A program made the position numbers and the translations under genes. A stretch of DNA of 64,000 nt from Candidatus Aenigmatarchaeota archaeon (GTDB lineage Archaea; Aenigmatarchaeota; Aenigmatarchaeia; JACPZZ01), in the NCBI GenBank assembly GCA_016180965.1, contig JACPAF010000001.1, positions 223,513-287,512 of the forward strand, given 5' to 3'. The notes under the pieces were generated by a model. The model was not told the DNA's origin. It saw only the letters and a list, made by a program, of their open reading frames with translations, and made no database searches. Numbering within the stretch: the stretch's first letter is position 1; each line of letters opens with the position of its first letter. Shown piece after piece: positions 2,701 through 26,799 of this stretch.

Positions 2701-4368
2701 ATGAGAATTTTACAATTGCACGCCGATTCGGTCGAATATGAGCCTGTAAAAAAGGAAATAAAAACCGCTGAAGAGGTAGAGTTGAAGAAATATTCTTTCA
2801 GCGATGTGATGGTTGTTTTGACCGCGGTCGAGAAAGGCGATTCGAAGGAGACTGCTGATTGGGCGATTGATGACGCGAAAAAATTCATGGAACGAATGAA
2901 GATAAGCAAACTTTTGATCTATCCGTATGCGCATATCAGCTCGAATTTAGCTTCGCCATTTGATGCTATGGATCTGATACTCGAAATGGAAAAACATGCC
3001 AAACAGCTGGACATTGATGTTAGCCACGCGCCGTTTGGGTGGAACAAGCGATTTGCGATCTCTGTTAAAGGCCACCCGATGGCGGAGATGTCCCGTTCAT
3101 ACACGGGAAAACCTGTTGCGAAAGAGGTTAAGGTTGAAGTTAAACCCGTGGCACAGGAGCAGCCGCTGGAAAAACTGCCGGATAATGACCACCGTGTTCT
3201 TGGACAAAAGTTAAATTTATTCAGCTTCCAGGCGGAAGCGCCGGGCATGACGTTCTACCATCCCGGAGGTATGACAGTGCGCAATGAACTAATAAAATTC
3301 TCGCGCGAGAAACAAGCTGCGGCAGGCTACATAGAAATAATGACGCCCATAATCATGAAACGCAGCGTTTGGGAGCAAAGCGGGCATTGGGACCATTACA
3401 AGAACAATATGTTTTTCACAGAGACCGAGGATGCCCAATACGCGATTAAGCCGATGAACTGTCCTGGTGCGATACTCTATTTTAAAAACTCGAAACGCAG
3501 CTATCGCGAGTTGCCGATGCGCGTTTCGGAGTTCGGGATGATACATCGGAATGAGTTAAGCGGAACCTTGGGCGGGCTGTTCCGCGTGCGCGAATTCACT
3601 CAGGACGATGCGCATTTGTTCGTGCGTCCGGACCAGTTAACCGAAGAGTTAACTAATGTCATCGGCCTGGTCGAGGAATTTTACACTCAATTCGGGTTTG
3701 ATTTTCGCGTCGAGCTTTCTACGAAACCTGAAAACTCGATAGGTTCCGACGACCTGTGGTCGAAGGCTGAAGCGGCTTTGGAGGCTGCGATAAAGGAACG
3801 AAAATTAAATTATAAAATAAATCCGGGCGACGGCGCTTTTTACGGGCCCAAAATCGATTTCCATATCAAGGATTCCTTGGGAAGGACGTGGCAATGCGGG
3901 ACCGTGCAGGTCGATTTCTTCATGCCTCAGCGTTTCTCGATTTCCTACGTCGATGCCGGCGGGAAAGAAACTGTTCCGATTATCATACACCGCGCGATAT
4001 ACGGAAGCGTAGAAAGATTTTTGGGAATTTTAACGGAACATTACAACGGCTCGTTCCCTTTGTGGTTGGCACCAATCCAGGTTAAGGTTTTGCCCATCAC
4101 CGACAGCAACGTCGAATATTCGAAAAAAGTCGTCGACGCGCTGCGTTCTGTCGGGGTTCGCACGGAAGGCGATTACGAAAACCATACGCTGGATTATAAA
4201 ATACGGAATGCTTCTATGCAAAAAATATTTTATACTATAATAATCGGCAACAAGGAGGAGGAAAAGAAAACCATCGCTTTGCGCGGCCGTGACGGCAAGA
4301 CGCAATACGATGTTAATCTGGAAGAGTTTGTAAAAGAAATCCAATTCGAAATTTCGCGCAGGTCGTAG
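2701..4368 (+). CDS. thrS: threonyl-tRNA synthetase (archaeal type with N-terminal editing domain)
   Basis: 555 aa. Class II aaRS motifs (FRVREFTQDDAHLF, GPKIDFHIKDSLGRTWQCGTVQVDFFMPQRF), C-terminal anticodon-binding domain, archaeal-type N-terminus MRILQLHADSVEYEP. ATG at 2701 is in frame with the TTG at 2689. Confidence 0.9.
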   Translation: MRILQLHADSVEYEPVKKEIKTAEEVELKKYSFSDVMVVLTAVEKGDSKETADWAIDDAKKFMERMKISKLLIYPYAHISSNLASPFDAMDLILEMEKHAKQLDIDVSHAPFGWNKRFAISVKGHPMAEMSRSYTGKPVAKEVKVEVKPVAQEQPLEKLPDNDHRVLGQKLNLFSFQAEAPGMTFYHPGGMTVRNELIKFSREKQAAAGYIEIMTPIIMKRSVWEQSGHWDHYKNNMFFTETEDAQYAIKPMNCPGAILYFKNSKRSYRELPMRVSEFGMIHRNELSGTLGGLFRVREFTQDDAHLFVRPDQLTEELTNVIGLVEEFYTQFGFDFRVELSTKPENSIGSDDLWSKAEAALEAAIKERKLNYKINPGDGAFYGPKIDFHIKDSLGRTWQCGTVQVDFFMPQRFSISYVDAGGKETVPIIIHRAIYGSVERFLGILTEHYNGSFPLWLAPIQVKVLPITDSNVEYSKKVVDALRSVGVRTEGDYENHTLDYKIRNASMQKIFYTIIIGNKEEEKKTIALRGRDGKTQYDVNLEEFVKEIQFEISRRS

Positions 4369-4388
4369 AATCATTTGCATCGTAAACT

Positions 4389-4409
4389 GACGCATACCAA
4401 GTATGCGTC
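4389..4409 (+). repeat. hairpin GACGCATAC-caa-GTATGCGTC followed by TAGCTAC, terminator-like, downstream of thrS; member of the dispersed hairpin family
   Basis: Perfect 9 bp inverted repeat 21 nt after the thrS stop. Followed by the CTAGCTAC motif shared with other copies. Confidence 0.5.
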
Positions 4410-4620
4410 TAGCTACTAAACACATGATTCAGTCGGCAAATGGATTTGCCTGATTCTGCAAAAAAATAACGTTTCAGGCGAAAAAAGTTTATATAACAGT
4501 TTCACCAATTACTATCAATTAGGGAGAATTTCTCCTTGTGTAAACGGCGCTTCGCCGCCGGTTCTTGGTTTGCACTTTGACGTGACGGGGCAACCTATCG
4601 CGTTTGAGCGGGCGCAAGTA

Positions 4621-4770
4621 ATAGAAAACCATGGGTTTTCTATTTGAGAAATCCTTGACGGATTTCTCAATATTGCACTTTTGGGCTGTCTAACAAGTTT
4701 AGAACAGCCTGTCTATGTGTGAGCTCACAGGAAACTTCGTTTCCTGTGCACGAAAACCTTGTGGTTTTCG
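4621..4770 (+). promoter_or_regulatory. cluster of five consecutive stem-loops in the ftsZ upstream/leader region
   Basis: GAAAACC-atg-GGTTTTC (4624-4640); TTGAGAAATCC-ttgac-GGATTTCTCAA (4644-4670); TGTGAGCTCACA (4718-4729); CACAGGAAAC-ttc-GTTTCCTGTG (4726-4748); CGAAAACC-ttgt-GGTTTTCG (4751-4770). Confidence 0.4.
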
Positions 4771-4814
4771 TTGTTTCAAAAAAGCTCAACCAAAAGAGAA
4801 TGGAGGGGAATTGT

Positions 4815-5931
4815 ATGTCAATATTGGAGTCGGTTTTGAGTCGTGGGGCAACAGGCCACGGAAATGCGGAATCCGGAGTTACTATGAAAAACTTCGATTA
4901 CGAAAAGATAACTGAGCAGGAATTTGGCTTTAGCATGAAACGCGCCAGGATCGTTGTCGTTGGATGCGGTGGAGGCGGAACAAACTCTATCAACCGATTG
5001 GCAGAAATGGGCGTTGAAGGCGCAACCACAGTTGCGTTGAACACAGATGCAAAGCATTTGGCGGTCATAAAATCTGACAAGAAGATTTTGATTGGAAAAG
5101 AACTAACGCGCGGTTTGGGAGCAGGCGGTTACCCAGAGATCGGAAAGAAAGCGGCAGAGGAAAGCCGCACACAATTGAAAGAGTCGCTCACCGGCGCAGA
5201 CTTAGTTTTCTTAACAGCAGGGATGGGCGGAGGGACAGGAACAGGTTCCGCGCCTGTGGTTTCAGAGATAGCGAAGGAGATGGGTGCGATCGTTATCGGA
5301 GTTGTAACGATGCCTTTCAAGATTGAAGGCGCACGTATCGTAAAAGCTGAGAACGGTCTCGGAAAATTACGCGAAGCTTGCGACACAGTCATTGTCATTG
5401 AAAACGACAAGCTGTTAGAATTTGCAGGCGACTTGCCAATACAACAGGCTTTCGCTGTTGCAGACGAATTGATTGCGGGAATGGTCAAAGGCATAACCGA
5501 GACAATAACATTGCCGTCGTTGGTCAATTTGGACTACGCTGACGTGAAGGCGATAATGCATTCCGGCGGCGTTGCGGCGATTGGACTTGGATTTTCAAAC
5601 AGCTCTGACCGTGCTCGCGATGCGGTTACAAAAGCATTGCCCGTTGTTAGAAGTTGATTACCAAGGCGCTTCAGGCGCGTTGATACACATAACAGGCGGG
5701 CCAGACCTCAAATTGTCCGAAGTTAACCAGATAGGCGCAATAGTTTCGTCGCATTTGGATCCTTCGGCACAGGTTATCTGGGGCGCGCGAGTACAACCGG
5801 ATTTCCATGGCAAGGTCCAGGTAATAACAATAATAACAGGTGTGAACAGCCCGTACATACTCGGCCAGGTGCACAGAGAGGCTTCCCCGGCCTTGGGAAT
5901 AAGCGAGCTTGGCATAGACAAGATTGCGTAA
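4815..5931 (+). CDS. ftsZ: cell division GTPase FtsZ with apparent +1 frameshift at the C3 run 5640-5642
   Basis: GGAGGGGAA Shine-Dalgarno before ATG 4815. Tubulin signature GGGTGTG and T7-loop region run in frame 0 up to 5657. The C-terminal PLLEVDYQGASGALIHITGG...VITIITG continues in frame +1 (track ORF 5572-5931). Removing one C restores ...AVTKALPLLEVDYQ.... Confidence 0.85.
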
Positions 5932-6023
5932 GCTTTTTAGAAAAAAGCTTAACCAAAAAAAGTGCGATGAGGCGAAAGCTGAGCACGTTACTTATTTTTT
6001 AATTTGTTAATACGATTAGTGTT

Positions 6024-6152
6024 ATGGAAATAAGATTTAAGCCTGTCCAAGAGTTTTTGTCCAACGGGCGGAACAGGGCTATTTTTATCTTCTGGCTGCT
6101 GATGTTTTTAGTCGGCGTTTTTCTGGCGCTTAAGGTGATGGGGAGGATTTAA
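6024..6152 (+). CDS. small hydrophobic protein (42 aa, one TM helix), not in the ORF track
   Basis: ATG 6024 ... TAA 6150-6152. MEIRFKPVQEFLSNGRNRAIFIFWLLMFLVGVFLALKVMGRI. Stop overlaps the ATG of the next gene (TAATG), and a GGAGG sits inside its 3' end. Confidence 0.3.
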   Translation: MEIRFKPVQEFLSNGRNRAIFIFWLLMFLVGVFLALKVMGRI

Positions 6153-6388
6153 TGTCGGACAAGATACCAAGGGAAGAGGTTGTTAAATGGTTGGAGAGAT
6201 TGGATAAGAAACTAAGTTCAATTGAACCAACGGGTGCAGCAGGAGAAAAGGCTTTACTCAATGCGGAAGCTTATCGCGACGATTCCAAACATTGGTTAAA
6301 GCAGGAAAATTTGTTTTTAGCGTTTGAGGCGTGCGTTTATTCGTGGGCTATCGTAGAGACCGCAGAGAACTTGGGCGCGTTAATTTGA
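6152..6388 (+). CDS. small conserved hypothetical protein (78 aa)
   Basis: Intact ORF translationally coupled to the upstream small ORF. No recognisable catalytic motif. Confidence 0.4.
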   Translation: MSDKIPREEVVKWLERLDKKLSSIEPTGAAGEKALLNAEAYRDDSKHWLKQENLFLAFEACVYSWAIVETAENLGALI

Positions 6389-6468: not shown

Positions 6469-6690
6469 ATGGGCGAGACTCAGTCGACGGTAAAGAAATG
6501 GGGATCTTCGCTAGGTGTTGTTATACCTATCGAGGTTGTGAAACAGAAAGGTTTGCGTGAAGGAGATACGGTGGTGCTGGAGATAAGCAAAAAGAACACG
6601 ATCCGAGAGATCTTCGGATCCTTGAAGCATAACAAGTTAGACTCCCAAAAAATCAAAGATAATCTTAGAAAGGAGTGGAGCAAATGGTAA
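6469..6690 (+). CDS. vapB: antitoxin VapB (AbrB/MazE/SpoVT swapped-hairpin domain)
   Basis: KKWGSSLGVVIPIEVVKQKGLREGDTVVLEI is a typical SpoVT/AbrB fold. Overlaps the downstream PIN gene. Confidence 0.65.
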   Translation: MGETQSTVKKWGSSLGVVIPIEVVKQKGLREGDTVVLEISKKNTIREIFGSLKHNKLDSQKIKDNLRKEWSKW

Positions 6691-7049
6691 GGTTTTTTCT
6701 GGATACGTTTGCCATGTTTGAAATAACTAATGGAAATCCAAGATATGAAAAATACCTTAATTATGATTTTTCTACGTCAATGCAAAACCTCTACGAACTT
6801 TACTATAATTTATTGAAAACCAACGGCGAGGATTTCGCAAGGAATTGTTTTAATCGTTTCAGGCATTTCGTTGTCCAGATAAATGATTTGCATATATTCA
6901 ATGCCTCCAAGTTTAGGCTTGACAATTCGAGGCTAAATTTATCTTATGTCGATGCATTAGGTTATGCCATCGCAAAGGAAGAAGAGATCAAATTCCTTAC
7001 GGGCGATAAAGCCTTCAGAAATATGGATAACGTGGAATTTGTGCGCTAG
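6684..7049 (+). CDS. vapC: PIN-domain toxin VapC
   Basis: MVRFFLDTFAM (first acidic residue), LSYVDALGYAIAKEEEIKFLTGDKAFRNM (third and fourth Asp). Start could also be ATG 6675. Overlaps the vapB stop. Confidence 0.65.
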   Translation: MVRFFLDTFAMFEITNGNPRYEKYLNYDFSTSMQNLYELYYNLLKTNGEDFARNCFNRFRHFVVQINDLHIFNASKFRLDNSRLNLSYVDALGYAIAKEEEIKFLTGDKAFRNMDNVEFVR

Positions 7050-7555: not shown

Positions 7556-8308
7556 ATGTTAACAATTGCGGGGTTGGGCGTCTGGGACGAGAACGACATT
7601 TCGCTGAGGTGTTTGGATGCTATTCGGGAAACGAACATAGTTTACGTTGAGTTGTACACGAACCTTTGGAATGGCGATGTTAATAAACTGGAAAAGCTGG
7701 CCGGAAGAAAAATAACGACCCTTCCGAGAAAAGAAGTTGAGGAAGGTTTCGGGAAGATTTTAGACGAAGCCAGGAACGAGAGCGTTTGCCTATTGGTTCC
7801 CGGAGACCCGCTTGCAGCGACGACGCACATGGATTTGGTAATCCAGGCGAGGAAGATGAATGTCGCGACAAGGATAATCCACTCGTCATCAATTTTTACA
7901 GCCGCCGCGGAGAGCGGGTTGCAGTTATACAAGTTCGGCAAGACCGCAACTATCCCTTTATCGGAGAAAACAGGCGGCGTGCTTCCGCAATCTGTGTATG
8001 ACACCATTAAAGGAAACCTAGAGTTGGGTTTGCACACTTTGCTGCTTTTGGACATAGACGTTGAAAATGACAAGAATCTCGGAGTTATGGATGCGTTGCG
8101 CGTTTTGCAGAGGCTGGATAAAGCTAAAATATTGGCAGATAAAAAGTTGGTTGTTGTGTCCAAACTCGGGTCTGCGGAGCAGGTGATAAAATACGGGTTT
8201 GCGGAGGAACTGTTGAAAGCTGGTTTCGGGCTACCGGCAGTCTTGATAGTTCCCGGAAAATTGCATTTCGCCGAGCAAGAGTTTGTTGAGTTCTTTAGTT
8301 TTAAATAA
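7556..8308 (+). CDS. dph5: diphthine synthase (Dph5, tetrapyrrole-methylase family)
   Basis: MLTIAGLGVWDENDISLRCLDAIRETNIVYVELYTN, LLVPGDPLAATTHMDL. ATG 7556 is preceded by AGGGAG and lies in frame within the track ORF starting 7466. Confidence 0.8.
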   Translation: MLTIAGLGVWDENDISLRCLDAIRETNIVYVELYTNLWNGDVNKLEKLAGRKITTLPRKEVEEGFGKILDEARNESVCLLVPGDPLAATTHMDLVIQARKMNVATRIIHSSSIFTAAAESGLQLYKFGKTATIPLSEKTGGVLPQSVYDTIKGNLELGLHTLLLLDIDVENDKNLGVMDALRVLQRLDKAKILADKKLVVVSKLGSAEQVIKYGFAEELLKAGFGLPAVLIVPGKLHFAEQEFVEFFSFK

Positions 8309-8337
8309 CCATCCGGATAAAATATTCTAAGGTACCA

Positions 8338-9132
8338 ATGGTCCAACAGGATAAGCTCGGCGTCGCGGAGAATTCTATAACCAGAGGATTGACTTTTCTT
8401 AGGAAAGGGGTTTATGACGAGGTTAGTGGAAATTCCAGGAAAGCTGTTAGAAATCCAGCGGACGTTTTCGGAGCCGCAACAAACCAGTATGTAACTGCTT
8501 ATAAAGCGTTAAATGAAAGCAAACCGGATAAAGATGCGCTGCAGCCTGTAATAGACAGGTACGACAAGGCGATGGCGGATCTGGATCATCTGAAAACAGA
8601 ATTAATTGATTATGCCAAAGAGGCTGCAAACAAAATTGGCCAAAGATCCATACTTTATGTTTCGGGCGTGGAAAAGCTGGTTGTCCAAGAGGAACGTGGC
8701 AGAAAAATTTTAGGCGTCCCTTATGCGCGCAGGCCCAAGGCTGCAAAGGTAAAGGACGCGATAGATAATGCCAGAGGCCAGATAGGCAACATCGTGATAA
8801 CCACAGAGGTCAAAGAAAACGGCCATGAAGTCGGCAGCGGAAAATCTTATATTTTACACTTGCGCGGAGATCTGGCATCGATCAGAAACAATCTCAAACG
8901 GGCTGCGCTGCTCGGCGATCCCGAGGAGAAATACATTACAGGAGTCGAGGGTGATGTGGCACAGGATATGAAATCCATTGACGATTTGGACAAATACCAC
9001 AGGAACCTTTTGTCGGAGAGGTTTAAAGCTGAACAAAAGAAAGCCGAGGATAAAAGGCTGGCGAAACTTGAAAAAGAAAGGCAGCGCGACCTTCGCAAAA
9101 ACCTTAAAGAACTAAGAAAGAGGAAATGGTAA
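8338..9132 (+). CDS. paralog family protein 1 (unknown function; basic C-terminal tail)
   Basis: 264 aa. Shares the core YVSGVEKLVVQEERGRKILGVPYARRPKAA with the next gene. Lys/Arg-rich C-terminus. Confidence 0.6.
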   Translation: MVQQDKLGVAENSITRGLTFLRKGVYDEVSGNSRKAVRNPADVFGAATNQYVTAYKALNESKPDKDALQPVIDRYDKAMADLDHLKTELIDYAKEAANKIGQRSILYVSGVEKLVVQEERGRKILGVPYARRPKAAKVKDAIDNARGQIGNIVITTEVKENGHEVGSGKSYILHLRGDLASIRNNLKRAALLGDPEEKYITGVEGDVAQDMKSIDDLDKYHRNLLSERFKAEQKKAEDKRLAKLEKERQRDLRKNLKELRKRKW

Positions 9133-9824
9133 TTTTTATGAGTATTGAACTTGCAGAGGCGGACGCGAGGCGCGGTCTGGAATATATCAGGAAGGGTAAA
9201 AGCGGAAAATTGAAGGATCCTGAGTACGTTTTACAGAAGGCTGCAGAGGCTTATACGAAAGCTTCTAATGGTTTGGTTGAACCTGCGGCAGATGCGTCGA
9301 AAGATGAGAAAAAAACCTACACCAATGTTCGTTCACTGGTTGATATTTTACAAAGTGAGCTGGCTTCTTATGCAAAAGGGAAAGTTGGCGGGCTGACAAA
9401 AGAGGCTGGCGGATATGTTTCTGGAATAACAAAATTGGTTAAACAAGAGGAACGCGGTAAACGGATTTTAGGGGTTCCATACGCGAAAAGGCCGTCCGTT
9501 GCTTATGTTTCCGGAAAGATCGAGCAGGGTAAAACCTATGTAACCCAAGCTTTGGGAAAGGTTGGGGCAATGAGAAAAATTTTGGAAAATGAGGCGTTGT
9601 TGAAACCGGCCGAGAAAAACATGCTAAATGAAGCAAAGGGTGCGCTTGAGCAGGTCAATACCAAGCTTGGTGAATTGGAAACGCAGAACCAGAACGCGGG
9701 CAAGGCGGTTAAACCAAAAACCAAGAAGAAAGATGATGGCAAGGGCGGATTGCATTTACCACACGTAAAATTACCCAGTTTTAAGCGAAAACCCAAGGGT
9801 TGGCAGTCTCGCGGTGGGTTTTAA
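9126..9824 (+). CDS. paralog family protein 2 (unknown function; ends ...SRGGF)
   Basis: YVSGITKLVKQEERGKRILGVPYAKRPSVA core. Start overlaps the stop of protein 1 (ATGGTAA); alternative ATG at 9138. Confidence 0.6.
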   Translation: MVIFMSIELAEADARRGLEYIRKGKSGKLKDPEYVLQKAAEAYTKASNGLVEPAADASKDEKKTYTNVRSLVDILQSELASYAKGKVGGLTKEAGGYVSGITKLVKQEERGKRILGVPYAKRPSVAYVSGKIEQGKTYVTQALGKVGAMRKILENEALLKPAEKNMLNEAKGALEQVNTKLGELETQNQNAGKAVKPKTKKKDDGKGGLHLPHVKLPSFKRKPKGWQSRGGF

Positions 9825-9869
9825 ATACTTATCTGGTTTTAAAATTAGGATAGGAGAGGTTGATTGAAA

Positions 9870-10550
9870 ATGGCTGTAGATTATAGTAAGATTGTCGATA
9901 GTTTGAATAACGCGCTTGATAGGCTTGGTAGTTTAGGTTATGTTCCGGGCAAGGCGCCAAAAACGAAGATCGCAAGCGATCCTGTTAGGATGCTTCTTAG
10001 TGGCGTTGACGCATACACTTCTGCAAAAACAGATTTGGGCGCGCTTCCAGTGGTTGGAGTAGCAGGTGCGAAAAAAGCTGACGTTGACAGGTACAACGCT
10101 GCAGTTCAGGTTTTGGACACTGTCGGAGCGGGTTTAAGATCCGCATTCAAGGATTATGTACAGGCTGTGGGCCAAGGATTGGAAGGAAATGCAGCTTCGT
10201 TGAAAAGACAGGTTGAAAGCGAGCGCAAAGGTCCTATGAGGATTTTACCGAGATCGTCTTCATACCTTGTTAGCAACGGTTTAGACGATGCTAAGACAGC
10301 TGTCGGTTACGCGAAAGCTGAAGTTGCGGCTGTAAGAACAGCTTTTGAAGGTGCGCCTGACCTGTTGAAACCACAAGACAAAACTTACATTTCAGAGCTT
10401 GAAAAAAGATTGGGTAACATTGCGTCGTCTTTGACAAAAGAGGAAACAAGACACAACGACAAGGTCGACAGGGAAGCTGTGAAAGCGGACAGGAAAGCCT
10501 GGGAAAAGCTTTTGAAAGGAAAGCCAAAGGGCAGCCGCGGCGGTTTCTAA
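9870..10550 (+). CDS. paralog family protein 3 (unknown function; ends ...KGSRGGF)
   Basis: ESERKGPMRILPRSSSY core, ELEKRLGNIASSL, C-terminal KGKPKGSRGGF. TAGGAGAGG Shine-Dalgarno before ATG 9870. Confidence 0.6.
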   Translation: MAVDYSKIVDSLNNALDRLGSLGYVPGKAPKTKIASDPVRMLLSGVDAYTSAKTDLGALPVVGVAGAKKADVDRYNAAVQVLDTVGAGLRSAFKDYVQAVGQGLEGNAASLKRQVESERKGPMRILPRSSSYLVSNGLDDAKTAVGYAKAEVAAVRTAFEGAPDLLKPQDKTYISELEKRLGNIASSLTKEETRHNDKVDREAVKADRKAWEKLLKGKPKGSRGGF

Positions 10551-11225: not shown

Positions 11226-11975
11226 TTATTTTTCTATTTTTTCCATCAAAGCCTCCATTTTTTCAACGAACCGTGTCGCCTTTTCAACCATCTCGTCGAT
11301 TTTTTCCGGCGTGACGAGCTTCAGTTCACCGTGTTCCAGTTTTTTCCACGTCTTGATGACGTCTTCGTAATATTTTACGTATTCCGGCGACAATTTCCTT
11401 TTTCGTACGAAATGTATTCGCAACTGGTCAGGGACATTTTTTGGCGTCGGCGGCGACACGCCGATGCTTAACAGCGGAGCTTGCGCCGCGTCCACGACTG
11501 CGGACGACAATGCGTCCATTATTGAGATTGTGTGGATACGTTCTATGCGCAACAAACGCAAAGGCGATTGCTGTATCAAGGATTTCATAGCCTCTTTCGT
11601 TCCGGGCACGCGGCCTTCGAGCAATAATTTTTTCAGCGGTAAAAAGAATCCTGACGGGTCGTATATCGGAATGCCGTCGCGTATTTCCGTGAACGTGACC
11701 GGAGAACCGTGCCGGATGAGTTCCCAATAATCCGATAGTTTGTAAAATATCAAGTCAGTTTCGCCGCGCAGTTTTAGCAGCTTGGAGATTTTTTGCGCTT
11801 CCAGTTTTATTTCGTTGGTTGTGATTGAGTCAACTTGGTTGGTGTCGTCGAGAAGGAATATCAACGTGTCCTCTTTTCCCTCTTCGGAGGACGAAGTCAT
11901 CCAGATAGACTTTATTATGGTGGGATATTTTTTCGTTAATTTATCGATCAGTGATTTTGTTTTTTTCGTGTTCAT
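11226..11975 (-). CDS. nucleotidyltransferase-fold protein, catalytically degenerate paralog of the upstream gene
   Basis: Aligns along its length with 11972-13120 (IYDPSGFF..LLEGR..PLRLLR..HGELK). The hG[GS]...DhD motif is replaced by MTSSSEEGKEDTLIF. Start overlaps the upstream gene's stop (ATGA). Confidence 0.55.
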   Translation of the reverse strand: MNTKKTKSLIDKLTKKYPTIIKSIWMTSSSEEGKEDTLIFLLDDTNQVDSITTNEIKLEAQKISKLLKLRGETDLIFYKLSDYWELIRHGSPVTFTEIRDGIPIYDPSGFFLPLKKLLLEGRVPGTKEAMKSLIQQSPLRLLRIERIHTISIMDALSSAVVDAAQAPLLSIGVSPPTPKNVPDQLRIHFVRKRKLSPEYVKYYEDVIKTWKKLEHGELKLVTPEKIDEMVEKATRFVEKMEALMEKIEK

Positions 11976-13120
11976 TTTTTAGCCTCTTTCAACAACGATT
12001 CCAAATTCTTGGCATACAGGCGCGACGTGTAAACGTCTTTTTCGGTCACTTCGTTTAATTTGTCATTGTCGGATGCGTGCTTCATCAATTTTATTTTTTT
12101 CAGCAGTTCCAAATAGCCTTTCGACACCAGGCCCGTGTTAACCAACTCTTTTTCAACAAAATGCAGGATGTTTTTATCATTTACTCGTATTCCACGTTTT
12201 TTCAGTATGTTCCTGCAGGCTGTGAACGCCACATCATTGGATTCTTCGATCATTTCCTTTTTCTTTTCTTTTTCCAGCATGGAAAAAATCGTGTCCATCA
12301 TGTAGATGAAATCTTTTGCTTTCACAATCCAGGAATCGATTTCTTTCGCTGTTATTTTTGTCAATTCCCCATGGTCGATTTTTCTTGTCACTGCGTAAAA
12401 TTCATCCACCAAGTCGGCGTAAAATCCTGGAAGTATTTTTTTTGCGACGAAATTTTTTCGCAGCGCCGCGCCGACGTTTTTTGCGGACGGCGGCGCAATT
12501 CCATAGAACATCAATACCGCCTGCCCGGCTTCGACCATTGCGAAAAGCAAATCTGCGGTTATGTCTTCCAGGAATATTTTCCTGACGTCTTCCAGGCGCA
12601 GAGGCGCGCGCTGCATCAACATTTGCGACCTTTCAAATGTGCCGCCCATGCGACCTTCTTTTAATAATCTGCTTAACGGCTCTACATAACCTGATGGATC
12701 ATACACGGGCATCGCGTCGCGCATTGATGTGAATACCCACGGCTCGCCTGAGCGCAGCAAATCCCACCAATCTGTTAACCTGCGAACGGGCTGGAAATGT
12801 ATATTGATTTTTGTTTTTTCCTTTACAGCATCGTTTATTTCGGATATTTTTGCGCTCATTGCGGATAATTCAGCAGCGGATATATCCGTCGTGGCATCGT
12901 CGACCAAAGTCATTACGTCGATGTCCGATGTCGGTTTTGCTTCGCCGCGGGCGAATGAACCGTATAACCAGATAACCTTTATCTTATTTCCGTATATTGA
13001 AAGTATTTTAGAACAAGCCTCTTTGATGGCGTCGATAGCGGAATATGCCATAATCAATAATGAATGACGGGATTTTAATACCTGAGCAAGAAACCCGCGG
13101 GCATCGCCTGATTGAAGCAT
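11972..13120 (-). CDS. Pol-beta-superfamily minimal nucleotidyltransferase with conserved helical C-terminal domain
   Basis: VIWLYGSFARGEAKPTSDIDVMTLVDD is a canonical GS...DxD NTase motif. 382 aa. The N-terminal 23 codons overlap the hairpin at 13114-13136, so the true start may be ATG 13051. Confidence 0.6.
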   Translation of the reverse strand: MLQSGDARGFLAQVLKSRHSLLIMAYSAIDAIKEACSKILSIYGNKIKVIWLYGSFARGEAKPTSDIDVMTLVDDATTDISAAELSAMSAKISEINDAVKEKTKINIHFQPVRRLTDWWDLLRSGEPWVFTSMRDAMPVYDPSGYVEPLSRLLKEGRMGGTFERSQMLMQRAPLRLEDVRKIFLEDITADLLFAMVEAGQAVLMFYGIAPPSAKNVGAALRKNFVAKKILPGFYADLVDEFYAVTRKIDHGELTKITAKEIDSWIVKAKDFIYMMDTIFSMLEKEKKKEMIEESNDVAFTACRNILKKRGIRVNDKNILHFVEKELVNTGLVSKGYLELLKKIKLMKHASDNDKLNEVTEKDVYTSRLYAKNLESLLKEAKK

Positions 13121-13140: not shown

Positions 13141-14523
13141 TCCTTACCGCCCGCCAGATGAATTGCACACAGTTACTATTATTCCATGTTAACTATATTT
13201 TTCTATAGGAACCTCACATAAAGGGTGTTTTAAGTGCACATTCGAAAAGTATTGATTCATGAAAGAATCGAAAAATAATATCAGAATGTACCGTTATAGA
13301 ATATACCCTTCTCAAGAACAACGTAAAAGGCTTGATTCTCAACTCGCATCATGTAAAGAATTATACAACCTGCTTCTTCAAAAATGTAAAGAAGATTACA
13401 AGGAAAAAAGCATTTCCGTAAACCGAAAAATGCTCTACAAACTTGCCAAACAATTCACAGACAATGATGAACGTTATTCAGACGTACATTCCCAGGTCCT
13501 CCAAAACGTAGCTGACAGACTAGTAAAATCTTACAAAAACTATTTTAGGCGTATTAAAGAAAAGAAATCCGGCAAGAAGATAAAAGTCGGCTTTCCTAGA
13601 TTCAAAAAATTCTATTCAAGCATAACCTATCCGCAGAGCGGGTTTAATCTAGCCGCGAATCGTCTTTTTGCTTCGAGGATAGGCAATATTCCCATCGTAA
13701 CCGAAAGATTGCCTCAAGGAAAGACAAAAACACTAACAATCAGAAGAAAACCGTCGGGCAAGTGGTTTGTTTTTTTCAGTTCGTTTGTTGATACTCCTGA
13801 GACCGAAAACACAGTTAAATACAACAAAATCGGCATAGACATGGGCATTGAAAACTTCGCAACTTTATCGGACGGCACAACAATAGAAAATCCGAGATTC
13901 CTAAGAAAATCGGAAGACACGCTAGCAAAATACCAGCGCAGAGTGTCCAGAAAAGCGAAAGGTTCTAACAGAATAAAAGCAAAAATAAAAGTTGCGAGAA
14001 TACACGAAAAAATAACCAACCAAAGAACAGATTTCCTTCACAAAACAAGTAAAATGCTGACGGAAAAATACAGCTTCATAGCTGTTGAAAAACTAAATGT
14101 CAGTAACATGGTAAAGAACCATAATCTAGCGAAAAGCATATCCGATGCTTCGTGGAACCAATTCACTCGGATGATTGGCTACAAGGCTTCAAGTGCTGGT
14201 TGCCAACTCGTTTTTGTGAATCCACGAAACACATCGCAAATATGCAGCGGATGCGGAAACACAGTAAAGAAAGAATTAAGCGACAGGTGGCACGAATGCG
14301 ATTTATGCGGTTTGTCGCTGCACAGAGACCACAATTCCGCATTGGAAATATTAGACAAAGCCACCGACGGACTGTCGGGAAGTAACGCCTTTGGAGACAG
14401 TGTAAGACCTTCTGTAAAGAAGGTCGTGGTCGATGAATCAGGAACTACACGTGTTGAGATAGACGCTGGAAACCCAGCACTTTAGTGCGGGGAGGATGTC
14501 ATTAATGTGCAAGCTTTTATCCG
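13141..14523 (+). mobile_element. IS200/IS605-family element carrying tnpB only (IS1341-like); ends not defined
   Basis: Single tnpB gene without tnpA, flanked by about 120 nt upstream and about 40 nt downstream of non-coding DNA. Boundaries were placed at the flanking genes. Confidence 0.4.
13259..14485 (+). CDS. tnpB: TnpB (IS605 OrfB, RuvC-like RNA-guided endonuclease)
   Basis: 408 aa. MYRYRIYPSQEQ N-terminus, RuvC-I GIDMGIENFATL, RuvC-II IAVEKLNVSNM, zinc finger CSGCG...CDLCG, RuvC-III RDHNSALEI. Confidence 0.9.
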   Translation: MKESKNNIRMYRYRIYPSQEQRKRLDSQLASCKELYNLLLQKCKEDYKEKSISVNRKMLYKLAKQFTDNDERYSDVHSQVLQNVADRLVKSYKNYFRRIKEKKSGKKIKVGFPRFKKFYSSITYPQSGFNLAANRLFASRIGNIPIVTERLPQGKTKTLTIRRKPSGKWFVFFSSFVDTPETENTVKYNKIGIDMGIENFATLSDGTTIENPRFLRKSEDTLAKYQRRVSRKAKGSNRIKAKIKVARIHEKITNQRTDFLHKTSKMLTEKYSFIAVEKLNVSNMVKNHNLAKSISDASWNQFTRMIGYKASSAGCQLVFVNPRNTSQICSGCGNTVKKELSDRWHECDLCGLSLHRDHNSALEILDKATDGLSGSNAFGDSVRPSVKKVVVDESGTTRVEIDAGNPAL

Positions 14524-14556
14524 TTGGAAGAGAAAAATATAATCAGTGTTTATGCT

Positions 14557-15168
14557 ATGGTAACTCCCAAAAGCGCTGCAGATAAATACGAACAGATAGA
14601 CCGACTGACGCGCACTGGAGTTTCTGTTCTAGGAAAACAGATGAGTCCGACAGCTGCGATAACATCTGCGGGAGATTCTTACACACAGGCCAATACACTT
14701 TTTGGCGGCCTCACAGCCCCGAAAAGAGGAAAAGACCAGGTTGCAGGATTGAAGGATGCTATTGTAGGTTATGCGCGAACAGCGATGCGTACACGGGTTG
14801 AAGATGTCTACAAAAAAATGGGCGATGCAAGTTATACGATTGACCGAAGAGGTTCCGAGTTACGAGGTTCCGGCATTTTAAGTTTCAAACCCGGCGCCGG
14901 CCCATTCAAAGCCTTAGCAATTGGGCGACCTTCGCCTGAAAAGGCATTGCGTTCAGTCGGCGATGCGCAAACATATGCAACTGAATCCAAAGGTTATGTT
15001 AAAGATGTTTTCAGCGCTTTCAACGCTACAGGTCTGACAGAAACCGGAGACAGGGAATTCAAAAAGGATCTCGAAAAAAGACTGGCCGATGCTGAAAAGA
15101 AGATCGGTGAAAAGAAGGCAGACCTTTGGGGAGCTGAAAGACGGAAATCGATTCGCAGGGGATATTGA
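14557..15168 (+). CDS. paralog family protein 5 (unknown function; ends ...IRRGY)
   Basis: RRGSELRGSGILSFKPG core and DLEKRLADAEKKI match paralog 3 (ESERKGPMRILPRSS, ELEKRLGNIASSL). The TTG at 14524 is in frame with ATG 14557. Confidence 0.55.
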   Translation: MVTPKSAADKYEQIDRLTRTGVSVLGKQMSPTAAITSAGDSYTQANTLFGGLTAPKRGKDQVAGLKDAIVGYARTAMRTRVEDVYKKMGDASYTIDRRGSELRGSGILSFKPGAGPFKALAIGRPSPEKALRSVGDAQTYATESKGYVKDVFSAFNATGLTETGDREFKKDLEKRLADAEKKIGEKKADLWGAERRKSIRRGY

Positions 15169-15189
15169 AGCGATTTCCAGTGTTTAAAT

Positions 15190-16107
15190 ATGCGGGATGA
15201 AATAATTAAAAAGGACGATTCGATGAACACACAAAACAAGAATAATCTGGTTTTCTTGGCGATATTTTCTGTGTTTATGCTGGTTCCCATGCTGGCTGCT
15301 GCCCAATCGAGCACAGGCGCGGTGAGCCAATCACTGATGAAGATGATCGGCGTGCCGGATTCAATTGCAACAGGCCCGCCGCAGACAATAATATTTTACG
15401 TGGTTTTGCCTGCGATTTTGATGTTCATAATAATGTATGGAATATTGGATGAGATCAAGCTTTTCTACAGGGGCGGGATCAATTTCGCGATCGCTGTTTT
15501 AGCAACGCTGATAACGATACCGTCGGGGTTGTTAGGCCAGGTTATCATAGGCATATACGGAGGCGGGCTGGCGACCCTTGCGATCATTACCGGTATTGCG
15601 ATTCTTCCTGCATTCATATCAACTTTCGGTTCCAGGATGGGGCTGCCTAATAATATTCTTGAGTTGCTGACAGCTGTTGTTTACGGTTTCGTAATGTACA
15701 TAGTTTTCGGTTTCCTTGTCGACGGGCCGGCCGGCGGAACGGGCGGAGTGTTAAAGAATTTCTCGTGGGTCAGATGGGTATTCGTAATAGGCGTTCCGAT
15801 ACTCGTTGCGTGGAGAGGCGCAATGAACAGGAATATTGGCCTTAGAATGGGATCGGAACTTGCGGTTGAAAGCGCGGAGATAAAAGCAGCGGAACAGGCG
15901 GTCACAAGATGCCAGAGGGCGTTGCGTGATTTGGCAATGGTGACCAATGCTACGGGTGCCGGACCCTCCACAGGCATAGACCCGGCCACTTACAGCAATG
16001 CCCTGAATAATGTGCAGATCATGTGCAGTTCCAAATATCCGATACCTTATTTGCAAACGCTTACACGCGCCCAAATAAACGCTTTGGCCACCAATCACAA
16101 GAGATAA
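15190..16107 (+). CDS. membrane protein family A member 1 (signal peptide ...LAAAQS, polytopic)
   Basis: 305 aa. N-terminal hydrophobic segment ending MLVPMLAAAQSSTG, then 5-6 TM helices. Confidence 0.5.
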   Translation: MRDEIIKKDDSMNTQNKNNLVFLAIFSVFMLVPMLAAAQSSTGAVSQSLMKMIGVPDSIATGPPQTIIFYVVLPAILMFIIMYGILDEIKLFYRGGINFAIAVLATLITIPSGLLGQVIIGIYGGGLATLAIITGIAILPAFISTFGSRMGLPNNILELLTAVVYGFVMYIVFGFLVDGPAGGTGGVLKNFSWVRWVFVIGVPILVAWRGAMNRNIGLRMGSELAVESAEIKAAEQAVTRCQRALRDLAMVTNATGAGPSTGIDPATYSNALNNVQIMCSSKYPIPYLQTLTRAQINALATNHKR

Positions 16108-16123
16108 TTCTTTTTTTAGTCCA

Positions 16124-16951
16124 TTGCAATATTGTTTTATGGGCAAATTTTTATTCGGGTTTATTCTGGCGCTGCTTGCGATATTTCCGTTTGCAGCTGC
16201 GCAATCCACATTGTCCGACGGAACGATCAAGTTCTGGACGACTTGGTTTTATGTGCCGGCGAAATACCTGGTTTCGTGGCAGTCCATAGTCATTTTTGCC
16301 GTCGTTCCTGTTTTGATTTCAATTTTTTTCGTGCATGAAATATGGAAGGATATAGGATTTTTCCATTCGGGCGCAGTCAATTTCTGGATACCTCTTCTTG
16401 TGGTCTATATGATGCTGCGAAACGGTTTTTGGGATTATGTCGAGTTGTTCGTGTCGAACGTGCAGATGATTCCGGCATTGGCTTTGTCGATGCTAGCCAT
16501 GCAGATTACGGGCAAGCTTAGGTCTAAAATAACTTCGTTTGGCTATTCCGGCCCGTTGGGCGGTGTATTGGCATACGCATTAGATGCGATAGGAATGGGC
16601 ATATTTTTCGGCGGATTGGGTTTTGTTGTCAGCAAGGGGCATTTAGGACCAATTGTTTACACCTTGTTTTTCGTTGGGGCTGGGGTGGGCATTTTACTAA
16701 TCTGGTGGGATTCGCATGGAAAGGCGAAGCAGGCCAAGCTGTCCAACTTGCTGGAACAATATGACGTTATAACCAAACAGATGGAACCGTTGGAGAAAAA
16801 ACTTGTCGAGCTGGAAAAGAAGAAACAAGCTGCAATCGCTGCTAAAAGGAATTTTGAAGCGTTGGACATAACTCAGGAAATGGTTGCAGTTAACAGGCAG
16901 ATAGAAGGTTTGCGTGCTGAGAGAGAGGCAATTTCCGCGGGCGCGGCATAA
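16124..16951 (+). CDS. membrane protein family A member 2 (signal peptide ...FAAAQS, polytopic, C-terminal coiled coil)
   Basis: AIFPFAAAQSTLSDG parallels member 1. C-terminal LEKKLVELEKKKQAAIAAKR coiled coil. Confidence 0.5.
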   Translation: MQYCFMGKFLFGFILALLAIFPFAAAQSTLSDGTIKFWTTWFYVPAKYLVSWQSIVIFAVVPVLISIFFVHEIWKDIGFFHSGAVNFWIPLLVVYMMLRNGFWDYVELFVSNVQMIPALALSMLAMQITGKLRSKITSFGYSGPLGGVLAYALDAIGMGIFFGGLGFVVSKGHLGPIVYTLFFVGAGVGILLIWWDSHGKAKQAKLSNLLEQYDVITKQMEPLEKKLVELEKKKQAAIAAKRNFEALDITQEMVAVNRQIEGLRAEREAISAGAA

Positions 16952-16987
16952 AAGCAAGATTTAAGATTTGGAGGAGTAACTAATACT

Positions 16988-17584
16988 ATGTTTTCGGCTG
17001 CGTTCCAGTCTCCGCCTTCCGGTTCTGTGGCATCGTCAATATTCAAAGTGCTTGATAACTTGCAAGCTCAACAACTGGTCGTGCCGTTCCTTCTAACTTT
17101 CGTGATAGCGTATGGCGTATTGGATACGATACACATATTCAGAAAAAACAGCATTAACGCGATAATTTCATTGGCAATATCATTTTTTGCGATATTCTAC
17201 GGGCCTTACGGGGCGATGGGTAAGTTTTTGACACAACTGTACGGCACTGGCGCAGTCGCTATTGTTGGTTTAGTCATGTTCATGATAATCCTCGGCGTGT
17301 TTAGTTTGGGCGGCAACCATATGCCCGGCGTAGGCATGTTCCAAAGGCTTTTCGGCATGTCCGGCGGGGTTGTGGGCGGTATCGTTATCGTAGTTGTTTT
17401 CATATTTTTGCTTGCTTCGGGCTGGTTCGAAAATGTCGGAATAAGATTGGATCCGGATACGACTGCGTTGATGATTATTATTCTGGTAATTATTGCGTTC
17501 ATTGCGATAGTTGCGCGACCGGACAGAACCAGGACATGGTGGCATCATATGTTCCCGCCCGGCGCGCAAGGCGGACAGTGGTAG
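16988..17584 (+). CDS. membrane protein family B member 1
   Basis: LVVPFLLTFVIAYGVLDTIHIF motif shared with the next three genes. Four TM helices. Confidence 0.5.
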   Translation: MFSAAFQSPPSGSVASSIFKVLDNLQAQQLVVPFLLTFVIAYGVLDTIHIFRKNSINAIISLAISFFAIFYGPYGAMGKFLTQLYGTGAVAIVGLVMFMIILGVFSLGGNHMPGVGMFQRLFGMSGGVVGGIVIVVVFIFLLASGWFENVGIRLDPDTTALMIIILVIIAFIAIVARPDRTRTWWHHMFPPGAQGGQW

Positions 17585-17659
17585 GAATTGCAAAACTTGC
17601 AAAGTTTGATCAAAAGTGAGTTTGTCAAGGAATAAAAGCTCGAAAGAAGAATTGATATA

Positions 17660-18151
17660 ATGGTTTCGGATATTTTTACGCCTTTGGTCGGAAATTTAAA
17701 CAACCTCGGTTTTTACAAATTCGTCCTTCCGTGGCTGTTTACGTTGGCCGTTGTATATGGTGTGCTTTTGAAAGTCAAAGTTTTTGGAACTGACCAGCAA
17801 AAATCGTTGACCGCTGTCATAGCTATTGTCGCGGCGTTTTTCGTTGTTAATTACACGCCCGCTGGGTTTGCGTTAGACGGTTTTTTCACTCAAGTCTTTG
17901 GTGTGGGCATTTTGATACTCACCGGCATTTTTGTCGTACTTCTGGTTATGGGTTTAGTCGGGTTAAAAGGCGAGGATATATTCAAGGCTGAGAACCTGAA
18001 AACTGGCGGCGGCATGGCTGTTGTATTATTAGTAGCATTCATAATTTTCCTGTTCTTTACGATCGGCGGAATACATATAGCTTCGGATCAGTTATCTCTG
18101 ATAGCCGTGATGATATTCATGATTGTCGCGCTGGTTTTCATAGCTAAATGA
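17660..18151 (+). CDS. membrane protein family B member 2
   Basis: LGFYKFVLPWLFTLAVVYGVLLKVKVF. Confidence 0.5.
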   Translation: MVSDIFTPLVGNLNNLGFYKFVLPWLFTLAVVYGVLLKVKVFGTDQQKSLTAVIAIVAAFFVVNYTPAGFALDGFFTQVFGVGILILTGIFVVLLVMGLVGLKGEDIFKAENLKTGGGMAVVLLVAFIIFLFFTIGGIHIASDQLSLIAVMIFMIVALVFIAK

Positions 18152-18215
18152 CCGTACGGGATGAAAAAAAAACAAAATCGATAATTTGTATAAATAAAAC
18201 TATGGAAGAATTTCA

Positions 18216-18761
18216 ATGGCAACTTTTGATTTCATCGCACTGCAAAACACGTTAAAAGCAATGGGCTTTTACGACTTTGTTTTGCCTTGGCTGTTAGCGT
18301 TTGCGATCGTGTTCGGCATTTTACAAACAGTTAAAATTTTTAAGAAAGGTGATGCGTCAAACACGTCCGTCGACGCTGTTGTTTCGCTAGTTGTTGCGTT
18401 CTACCTGACAATATTCACTCCTTATTCCGGATTCTTGTCGTCGTTCTTCAGTAAATTATTCGGAAGCTCAATAATAATGCTGTCGAGCGTTCTCGTACTG
18501 TTAATGTTCGTGGGAATATTCGGGTTTAACATAAAAGATCTTCTGTCAAAGAAGGACGGTGAGAAGACAGAGCTCACGCCGATTGGTATAGCAGGTTTAA
18601 TAGGCGCGTTTATCGTCGCAGCAATACTTTTCATCAATGCCACTTCGGGCGTGTTTTCTTTCGGCGGTTCGGACATTTTAAACGGCGATACGCTGACAGT
18701 TCTTTTGTTTTTAGGAATAATCGGCGCGGTTATATGGTTTGTTGTAAAGGGCGCGAAATAA
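18216..18761 (+). CDS. membrane protein family B member 3
   Basis: MATFDFIALQNTLKAMGFYDFVLPWLLAFAIVFGILQTVKIFKKG. About 75% identical to member 4. Confidence 0.55.
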   Translation: MATFDFIALQNTLKAMGFYDFVLPWLLAFAIVFGILQTVKIFKKGDASNTSVDAVVSLVVAFYLTIFTPYSGFLSSFFSKLFGSSIIMLSSVLVLLMFVGIFGFNIKDLLSKKDGEKTELTPIGIAGLIGAFIVAAILFINATSGVFSFGGSDILNGDTLTVLLFLGIIGAVIWFVVKGAK

Positions 18762-18794
18762 GGTTTTAAATACGTCGGAGAATAATCGTAGATA

Positions 18795-19388
18795 ATGGCG
18801 ACGTTTGATTTTATTGGTTTGCAAAACACCCTACGTTCGATGGGTTTCTACGATTTTGTTTTGCCGTGGCTGTTGGCTTTTTCAATTGTTTTCGGCATTT
18901 TGCAGACGGTCATGATATTCAAGAAAGGCGCGGACAACACAAAATCAAACACGTCTGTTGATGCTGTCATAGCGCTTGCCGTTGCTTTTTACCTGACAAT
19001 ATTCACGCCTTATTCCGGATTCTTGTCGTCTTTTTTCAGCAAACTATTCGGCAGTTCAATCATAGTTTTATCAGGAATTTTAATGCTGTTAATGTTCGTG
19101 GGCATATTCGGATTTAATTCCCAAGAATTGTTCGGTGGAACTAAATCTAAAGCGGCGATAACCATAGTCGCGTTGATACTTGCCGGTTTGTTTTTGATAA
19201 ATGCAAGCTCCGGCGTGTTCTCGTTCGGCAACGGCCAGTTAGTTAACGGCGAAACGCTGACGGTTATCGCGTTTTTCGGAATGATCGCTGCGATAATATG
19301 GTTTGTGGTAAATGACGGGAAAACAAAAGAGAAAGACGAGGATGACAAGACTACGAAAATAGACCCAAAAACGGGCAAGCCTATATAG
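18795..19388 (+). CDS. membrane protein family B member 4 (recent tandem duplicate of member 3)
   Basis: MATFDFIGLQNTLRSMGFYDFVLPWLLAFSIVFGILQTVMIFKKG. Confidence 0.55.
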   Translation: MATFDFIGLQNTLRSMGFYDFVLPWLLAFSIVFGILQTVMIFKKGADNTKSNTSVDAVIALAVAFYLTIFTPYSGFLSSFFSKLFGSSIIVLSGILMLLMFVGIFGFNSQELFGGTKSKAAITIVALILAGLFLINASSGVFSFGNGQLVNGETLTVIAFFGMIAAIIWFVVNDGKTKEKDEDDKTTKIDPKTGKPI

Positions 19389-19447
19389 CGAACCTCGAAA
19401 CTTAGATCCGATTCATCTTAAATAGTTTATGCTCCTTTGAATGAATT

Positions 19448-19912
19448 ATGGAGAGAGAGGGCATTTATTCGTTGCCGTTTACTATTGTTCACAACGAGGT
19501 TTCTAGAACAGCCAATAATTTTGGTTACAAGGGTATCAGTCATTCAGATATTTTCTATGATGCACAACATGGGCAATTTGTTTACATGGGCCGAGATGGT
19601 TACCATTCAGTTAGAGAACCAGTCTGGTCCAACGGCTCTGTCAGTGTGTCTAGAAATTTATCTGTGGTCGGAAAACGAATTCTTTTGACATGGCCGTGGG
19701 ATCATCTGCTTATTAGGATGTACGATGAAATTGCAGTTAATACCGCCACAAACGGAGACGGAGTCTTGGGGGCATCTTCGGTAAAAGCTGACTTTTCGAA
19801 AAATTATTCGGGAGAAGTCGCTGACCTATTCTTTACTTTGGACAGGCTAGAAAAGCAACTTTTTATCACAAGTAACGCAGGAATAACCAGATCATTGCCA
19901 CGCGGTCTGTAA
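19448..19912 (+). CDS. hypothetical protein
   Basis: 154 aa ORF with no recognisable motif. Confidence 0.35.
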   Translation: MEREGIYSLPFTIVHNEVSRTANNFGYKGISHSDIFYDAQHGQFVYMGRDGYHSVREPVWSNGSVSVSRNLSVVGKRILLTWPWDHLLIRMYDEIAVNTATNGDGVLGASSVKADFSKNYSGEVADLFFTLDRLEKQLFITSNAGITRSLPRGL

Positions 19913-19915
19913 TTT

Positions 19916-20596
19916 TTACTGCTTGTTTATTTTCTGCAAAGAATCGTTTACAGCGCGCACGGATTCTATCATTGACGGCAATGTTTCTTTGAACGCTTTT
20001 TCAATCGATCCTATCCGTGCGTCTATTTGGTCGAGGTTGTCATGATATTGGTCTAATTTACCTTCGATGCCGCCCGACGCAGACGTACCGGATTCTTTTA
20101 ACGTCCGTATTTGAAGATCGACATCATGCAACCTCTCGTTAACGGAATCGAATCGTTTTTCTATCGCGTCTATCCTGAATTCCAATTGTTTCCATTTCTC
20201 TTCTACGACAGCTTCGACGACTTCTTCGATCTCTGTCGTGGACGGCGATGAATTTAATGCCACTGGTATTTCGGCCATCTCGGGCGTTGAAGGCTCCCAT
20301 TCTGTCCCGGCTTGCATTTGCGGTTGTTGCTGTTCGACTGGAAATTCAAAATCGTTTTGCTGGGCCTGCGGCTGTTCGGGAACAGCGAATCCCATGGGCT
20401 GCATTTCCTGTTGCGGCTGAGTTTGCATTTGTTGTTGGGGCTGCTTTGGCTGCGAAACAGTTTCTTTAACAGCGGTCATGACAGCTGTCCGTTCGTTGTT
20501 CATTGATTGGGAGAAATCGGAATCCTGCGCTGCGGGGCGCGGCATGTTTACAGGCATTGATTGTTTCTCTTCAGACTTCTTCTTGAACAGCCACAT
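19916..20596 (-). CDS. Gln/Pro-rich low-complexity protein with C-terminal coiled coil
   Basis: N-terminal QPKQPQQQMQTQPQQEMQP repeats. C-terminal about 100 aa are heptad-like (LEFRIDAIEKRFDSVNERLHDVDLQIRTLKE). Confidence 0.45.
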   Translation of the reverse strand: MWLFKKKSEEKQSMPVNMPRPAAQDSDFSQSMNNERTAVMTAVKETVSQPKQPQQQMQTQPQQEMQPMGFAVPEQPQAQQNDFEFPVEQQQPQMQAGTEWEPSTPEMAEIPVALNSSPSTTEIEEVVEAVVEEKWKQLEFRIDAIEKRFDSVNERLHDVDLQIRTLKESGTSASGGIEGKLDQYHDNLDQIDARIGSIEKAFKETLPSMIESVRAVNDSLQKINKQ

Positions 20597-20662
20597 AATG
20601 ATTGCCTAATTAATTTTGATTAGCGCTTAATAAATGCTTTCGCAGGCCGACTAAGCTAATTA

Positions 20663-21253: not shown

Positions 21254-21277
21254 AAACGCGCAAAATTGAGTTTGATC

Positions 21278-21676: not shown

Positions 21677-21710
21677 ATAATAGAATTTAGTTTAAAGGAT
21701 AATATAATAT

Positions 21711-23984: not shown

Positions 23985-23988
23985 TAAT

Positions 23989-26555: not shown

Positions 26556-26564
26556 GATGATTTG

Positions 26565-26798
26565 ATGAATGTGTTAAAGGGCCAGATAGAATCCGAGGCT
26601 GCGAAAACGCTTTTCCTAGGCATACTGGCTTTGGTGGCGTTGGCGGTTATCGTGGCTGTAATATTTGCGTTTCAAGGCCTTTCGTCGGGAGCCAATTTAC
26701 CGAGCGTGTGCGATGTGGGCGGGGGGCTTGTGGATAAAACTGTGTGTTTGCCGGCGCGTGCAACGGCCTGGGTTTACAGCCATACCATCGGGCGATAA
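26565..26798 (+). CDS. small pilin-like protein (class III signal peptide)
   Basis: MNVLKGQIESEAAKTLFLGILALVALAVIVAVIFAF: KG-Q cleavage motif followed by a hydrophobic helix. Confidence 0.5.
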   Translation: MNVLKGQIESEAAKTLFLGILALVALAVIVAVIFAFQGLSSGANLPSVCDVGGGLVDKTVCLPARATAWVYSHTIGR

Positions 26799-26799
26799 A

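Follow-up and report, generated by a model that had tools for sequence, protein, structure and literature searches.

The 64,000-nt stretch of Aenigmarchaeota DNA analysed here (the window) carries an ftsZ gene that on ORF translation is present, yet split over two reading frames of the forward strand. This raises the question whether the organism has lost a division gene, decodes it in an unusual way, or only appears to have lost it in the deposited sequence. The initial annotation had described the upstream frame as stopping at 5657 and the C-terminal block as continuing in the +1 frame, and we confirmed these frames and coordinates (Table 1). The upstream frame ends in ...AVTKALPVVRS-TGA, with ...DRARDAVTKALPVVRS as its terminus, and closes with four out-of-frame codons (PVVRS). 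The downstream frame (CCG TTG TTA GAA...) starts with PLLEVDYQ and reads PLLEVDYQGASGALIHITGG...VITIITGV...ELGIDKIA.

Pfam searches placed the Tubulin/FtsZ GTPase domain (PF00091, E 6e-48) in the first piece and positions 27-94 of the FtsZ_C profile (PF12327, E 2.5e-23) in the second, and the two pieces, when joined artificially, matched FtsZ_C from position 1 to 94. A profile of the orthologues matched the stop-to-stop pieces at positions 2-282 (E 1.6e-167) and 283-379 (E 1.7e-55), a split-gene match that by these scores lies far beyond chance. The complete FtsZ_C domain and the GID tail, which is the SepF-binding motif of archaeal FtsZ tails (PMC8178401), were not found in the frame of the GTPase domain, as FtsZ_C positions 27-94 and the GID follow after its TGA; judged by these matches, the sequence is FtsZ-derived, and a complete FtsZ is not encoded as written. 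The best solved relative of the joined protein is M. jannaschii FtsZ homolog 1 (FtsZ1; PDB 1FSZ and 1W58; E ~1e-101 over joined-protein residues 40-345), which has the GGGTGTG signature, the T7 loop and the FtsZ_C fold elements in common with the window. The gene, probably an ordinary archaeal ftsZ1, adjoins that of ThrRS, and ftsZ1 has been reported beside translation genes (PMC8178401). The search for a second ftsZ or cetZ proposed by the initial annotation was run on the 64-kb window, where an orthologue profile matched only the two ftsZ pieces and no second FtsZ or CetZ. No Rfam family was matched in 4300-6200.

Table 1. Positions in the window of the split ftsZ gene, its motifs and junction, and of the split FEN1 gene.
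Feature	Position	Strand	Description
ftsZ, upstream frame	4815-5657	+	ATG at 4815, 280 codons, then TGA; GTPase domain, helix H7, T7 loop and first ~26 FtsZ_C positions
ftsZ, downstream part	5641-5931	+	+1 frame, 96 codons, TAA at 5929-5931; remaining FtsZ_C and C-terminal tail
Shine-Dalgarno-like GGAGGGG	4802-4808	+	upstream of ATG 4815; invariant in all orthologous loci
Tubulin signature GGGTGTG (GTP binding)	5226-5246	+	intact
T7 synergy loop NLDYADV (NxDxxD)	5526-5546	+	intact; aligns with NVDFADV of M. jannaschii
Deletion junction in ftsZ	5639/5640	+	five bases (CARAA, equivalently ARAAC) absent; 1-nt microhomology (C)
CCC run	5640-5642	+	native length; AAC/CCG in every orthologue aligned at the junction; not the lesion
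Premature TGA	5655-5657	+	five codons past the junction in the shifted frame
GID motif of C-terminal tail	5911-5919	+	in the downstream, out-of-frame part
Flap endonuclease FEN1, split	44277-45273	-	XPG_N in 45195-44884; XPG_I in 44957-44277
Deletion junction in FEN1	44931/44930	-	107 nt, frame-breaking; 3-nt microhomology (TCA)

Comparison with orthologues, likewise proposed earlier, revealed a gap of five bases (CARAA) at the break. Intact orthologous loci numbered seven (L001/L009, L002, L003, L004, L005, L010 and L011), with 79-90% DNA identity; L001 is from GCA_016195275.1, L002 and L003 are ENA groundwater contigs, and L004, L005, L010 and L011 are from GCA_053529755.1, GCA_964476825.1, JACOVS01 and JAZDLW01, respectively. 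The DNA alignment of the junction took in L001-L005; for L010 and L011 the comparison relied on translations and on BLAST of the whole locus. In this alignment the relatives read GCN TTG CAR AAC CCG YTG, and the window reads GCA TTG C, followed by the gap and then CCG TTG, so that TTG CAR AAC CCG (L-Q-N-P) of the orthologues is represented by TTG C CCG. This single gap is the only indel in the gene between the window and the aligned orthologues. The intact Aenigmarchaeota orthologues (MBI3412654.1 in GCA_016195275.1, and those of GCA_964476825.1, GCA_053529755.1, JACOVS01 and JAZDLW01) show 93-99% protein identity and share with the window the ThrRS-ftsZ-DUF357 gene neighbourhood, as well as a promoter, a leader and a Shine-Dalgarno sequence that are conserved among them; in each the gene is one uninterrupted ORF of 373-374 codons with CAR AAC before CCG, and only the window lacks the five bases.

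The lesion is, as read from the aligned sequences, a 5-nt deletion that removes the Gln-Asn codons from the turn linking helix H9 to strand S8, which is conserved as A-L-Q-N-P-L-L. AVT(K/R)ALQNPLLEVDY occurs in all of the closest homologues (85-98% protein identity), and A-L-x-N-P-L-L, with the Asn in every one, is kept in 123/123 homologues (the best 120 homologues listed plus three cluster members). In M. jannaschii FtsZ1 the equivalent ...MALNSPLLDVD... lies in one frame, and the window is broken exactly at the equivalents of N-S. The initial annotation had pointed out that removing one C from the CCC at 5640-5642 restores the frame, which is arithmetically correct, and had called the resulting ...KALPLLEVDYQ... 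join seamless, which it is not, as the repaired protein falls two residues (Gln-Asn) short of every homologue. Against M. jannaschii FtsZ1 it aligns as AL--PLL versus ALNSPLL, and it is the only one of 124 proteins with a one-residue instead of a three-residue spacer before PLL.

The age of the break was assessed in a codon alignment of the window ftsZ with L005, L004, L001 and L002, in which changes were polarised. The terminal branch of the window carries 20 derived synonymous and 0 non-synonymous changes (15 + 5 synonymous, before and after the break), and the synonymous to non-synonymous ratios of the intact sister lineages are 16:3 and 41:9; ftsZ is under strong purifying selection in all relatives. 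With ~267 synonymous and ~846 non-synonymous sites and a dS of about 0.075 on the window branch, ~63 non-synonymous changes would be expected under neutrality of the whole branch and ~16 in the downstream part alone, where none was observed. A genuine inactivation would, on these counts, be confined to the last ~5% of the window branch, or ~18% when estimated from the downstream part only, and the zero non-synonymous changes would thus make it very young. The downstream frame contains no stop in its 96 codons and retains the GID tail motif, and neither relaxed selection nor the further stops and indels of a decayed pseudogene were seen in the window ftsZ.

A second broken gene, encoding the flap endonuclease FEN1, lies 39 kb from ftsZ and was found by screening same-strand overlapping ORF pairs in combination with Pfam. 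Its gap was measured against the closest DNA (L008, GCA_964476825.1), and the protein lacks residues ~89-124 (the helical arch) compared with P. horikoshii and P. furiosus FEN-1 and the Aenigmarchaeota orthologues. The synonymous to non-synonymous ratio is 15:8 on the window branch and 21:13 and 27:15 in intact relatives, and by this measure selection on FEN1 is not relaxed. The lesions identified are thus two among ~85 window genes, both deletions without repeat or homopolymer context, and no further broken gene was found in sampled Pfam scans and in a comparison of gene sizes with L008 over the 38-55 kb region. The initial annotation had left open an error or a pseudogene, the latter being striking for a division gene; this general alternative stands, and the pseudogene reading is weakened by the lack of decay in either half of the gene and by the similar context-free deletion in FEN1.

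In our estimate the missing five bases most likely reflect an error made during local assembly or scaffold joining of an uncurated short-read MAG, with a probability of roughly 0.6, and the ftsZ frameshift is most probably an ordinary, technical defect of a draft MAG. For the gap, of which the size and position can be read directly, as can the native length of the C run and the absence of decay, we infer an origin in assembly rather than in the cell. An artefact is favoured since both lesions are function-blind, undecayed and of arbitrary length, and come from a pipeline known for such errors. Deletions that hit two conserved genes regardless of function are also better accounted for by a technical cause than by separate recent losses. 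Against an artefact, a k-mer (de Bruijn) contig normally needs read support, so that an error could only have entered where scaffolds were joined or during later editing. The absence of CARAA from the deposited ftsZ of this groundwater Aenigmarchaeota MAG puts its last 96 codons, which encode the SepF-binding GID tail and all but one of the four strands of the C-terminal subdomain, in the +1 frame, and translation as written would yield a truncated protein of 280 residues. It is probable that the cells carry an intact ftsZ, in which the native junction would be TTGCARAACCCG, with the extra CARAA.

Judging by its close relatives and the range of SRR runs, the window seems to derive from the uncurated Illumina MAGs of He et al. 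2021 (BioProject PRJNA640378). The available part of that article describes Illumina reads, MEGAHIT contigs and the IDBA-UD scaffolder, and in the same part the methods include manual bin curation, with read-support correction and 'ra2' unmentioned there (PMC7906910). Chen et al. (2020, Genome Res), from the same laboratory as the PRJNA640378 study, reported that local assembly errors without perfect support from any read are common, with 13 such errors in one 1.13-Mb genome, suspected IDBA-UD of being especially error-rich, and noted that uncorrected errors spread wrong protein-coding sequences to databases (PMC7111523). Those errors are likewise small consensus faults that corrupt genes in uncurated MAGs, and the ftsZ gap is a candidate member of this class; two errors per 64 kb is of the same order as 13 per ~1.1 Mb.

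Scaffold joins do break genes in this group of MAGs, as at ~6620-6880 of L008 (GCA_964476825.1), where a wrongly sized scaffold gap of 50 Ns breaks a CDP-alcohol phosphatidyltransferase gene; the protein called in this relative has 139 aa, compared with 206 aa in the window. There are no Ns in the 64-kb window, and removal of scaffold Ns was rejected as a cause, there being no sign of stripped Ns in the window.

Database traces of the strain are sparse around the junction. The NCBI proteins flanking ftsZ are MBI2085121.1 (ThrRS) and MBI2085122.1 (DUF357), and since these accessions are consecutive, ftsZ itself has no protein record. A Logan contig of run SRR12113431 is identical to the window over 7875-10024, and one of SRR12113424 covers 1.8 kb around a PIN gene (6684-7049); both stop short of ftsZ, and contigs of ~2 kb in two runs suggest patchy coverage of the strain. 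Exact look-up in a collection of 15 billion proteins returned none of the ftsZ products (four start variants of the N-fragment, six of the C-fragment and two of the full-length protein with Gln-Asn restored), and exact look-up of the FEN1 C-fragment gave no match. Two junction-pattern scans of JGI metagenome contigs, open to either allele, were without matches, and a junction-spanning query of 193 aa retrieved no fragments of this strain, its matches being <=338 aa in length and <=79% identical.

A less probable but serious alternative is that the 5-bp deletion is genuine and very recent, and is the fixed or majority allele, which would make ftsZ1, and likewise FEN1, a newborn pseudogene; the cells would then survive by means of another FtsZ paralogue encoded elsewhere in the genome, or by depending on a host. 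The gap is present in the deposited consensus, in which a k-mer-built contig would normally have been backed by reads, NCBI handled ftsZ as a non-coding gene, and both lesions show microhomology (C and TCA), typical of natural replication or repair deletions. According to the available part of a study on H. volcanii, cells without FtsZ1, FtsZ2 or both still proliferate (doi 10.1101/2020.06.04.133736), which keeps this reading alive, FtsZ1 being not strictly essential in the single archaeon tested for this; the strains concerned were knocked out experimentally, and their species possesses two FtsZ proteins. A back-up copy is also conceivable in the clade, since the sister MAG JACOVS01 has two FtsZ1-like loci. 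However, 20 synonymous changes and 0 non-synonymous ones on the window branch require an extremely recent event, in a gene that is under strong purifying selection in every relative. Two independent recent knock-outs of conserved genes would be needed within 40 kb, the 64 kb of the window hold no second ftsZ or cetZ, and the second locus of JACOVS01, on a 3-kb contig, may be a binning contaminant. It is unlikely, in our estimate, that both deletions are genuine and prevail among the cells of an episymbiotic Aenigmarchaeote in nature.

It is very improbable that the gene is functional as written, either by a +1 slip of tRNA-Pro from CCC to CCG (5640-5643) or as two separately made pieces that associate. 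CCC-N is a shift-prone context, and the slip product would be a full-length ...KALPLLEVDYQ... protein lacking Gln-Asn, with ...AVTKALPLLEVDYQ... as junction peptide. Programmed +1 frameshifting of the prfB type likewise needs a +1 change for the full-length product, and the window has the shift-prone CCC-G at the site; unlike that type, the shift in the window is unconserved, lacks an A-site stop or stimulatory element, and would give a product without conserved residues. No orthologue has the frameshift, the seven loci and 123 homologous proteins all being in frame, and the slip product would be without the Asn kept in 123/123 homologues. The site reads CCC GTT GTT AGA, in which CCC is followed in the zero frame by GTT, an ordinary codon and not a stop, and there are no repeats or inverted repeats, and no obvious hairpin, at 5600-5720; conservation in orthologues and a stop or stimulatory element at the slippery codon, as in programmed frameshifting, were both absent. 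Separate translation of the second piece could start at an ATG at 5620, which opens the downstream frame, but neither this ATG nor the TTG at 5572 is preceded by a Shine-Dalgarno-like site comparable to the invariant GGAGGGG of the true start, and the break falls inside the C-terminal subdomain, not between domains.

The least credible reading is the one proposed in the initial annotation, in which the sequencer or assembler would have over-called the C homopolymer by one base (CCC for CC): deletion of one C does restore the frame, but a homopolymer-length error is effectively excluded since all orthologues aligned at the junction have the same CCC as the window, the window is five bases short and not one long, the spacer of the repaired protein is unique among 124 proteins, and 3-base homopolymers are not error-prone in Illumina data. 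An over-call predicts TTGCCGTTG (two Cs, without CARAA), with which TTGCARAACCCG or TTGCCCGTTG would be incompatible.

If the break is indeed an assembly error, as we prefer, its main value is as a quality flag, for a public MAG record that is evidently without an FtsZ protein. A survey of presence and absence would score the organism as FtsZ1-negative, and probably as FEN1-negative, though the genes are probably there, and a repair that restores the frame may still be wrong, as the one-C deletion leads to a protein found in no relative. Were the deletions real, they would provide a seldom-seen view of a reduced DPANN symbiont that is just beginning to lose genes for division and replication, with division by another FtsZ paralogue or dependence on a host, but nothing in the present evidence favours incipient gene loss. 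The ftsZ break is ordinary either way, as an artefact or as a very young deletion.

Several other features were observed in the window and its relatives. The two loci of JACOVS01, L010 (JACOVS010000039.1) and L018 (JACOVS010000031.1), show 97% and 68% identity to the window FtsZ, respectively, and both contigs have 50.7% GC; L018, whose contig measures 3 kb, is either a genuine second FtsZ1 paralogue of this clade or the product of contaminated binning. The intergenic region between ThrRS and ftsZ (4480-4790, + strand) contains a BRE/TATA-like box (GAAAAAAGTTTATATAAC), followed by a block of ~130 nt that is 80-100% conserved across seven genomes, above the level of the flanking ThrRS gene. Several hairpins are predicted in this block, two of them with compensatory pairs, and no Rfam family matches it; it may act as a structured leader of ftsZ or represent a small RNA not described before. 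Five perfect hairpins of 9-11 bp are located in the variable part of the same intergenic region (4620-4771).

Downstream of ftsZ there are MazE/PIN toxin-antitoxin cassettes (6469-7049), which vary in number among relatives: an extra pair, encoding an 80-aa protein and a PIN protein, lies between ftsZ and DUF357 in L001 (11636-13373) and L004 (2201-3934), and is missing from the window and L005. An IS200/IS605-type TnpB (13259-14485, + strand), which NCBI also annotates as TnpB (MBI2085133.1), with OrfB_IS605, Cas12f1-like TNB and HTH domains, adjoins a gene with a nucleotidyltransferase domain on the opposite strand (11972-13120). A long same-strand cluster at ~14500-34300 (+ strand) encodes a T2SSE-type ATPase (21711-23984), a T2SSF-like membrane protein (23989-26061), a Cys-rich protein of 905 aa (30032-32749) without Pfam matches, and numerous small proteins that begin with a hydrophobic, pilin-like N-terminal segment. 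The overlapping same-strand ORF pairs 29203/29577 and 30032/32671 were rejected as frameshifts, being separate Cys-rich pilin-like genes with over-extended starts. The cluster probably represents a type IV pilus-like surface apparatus.
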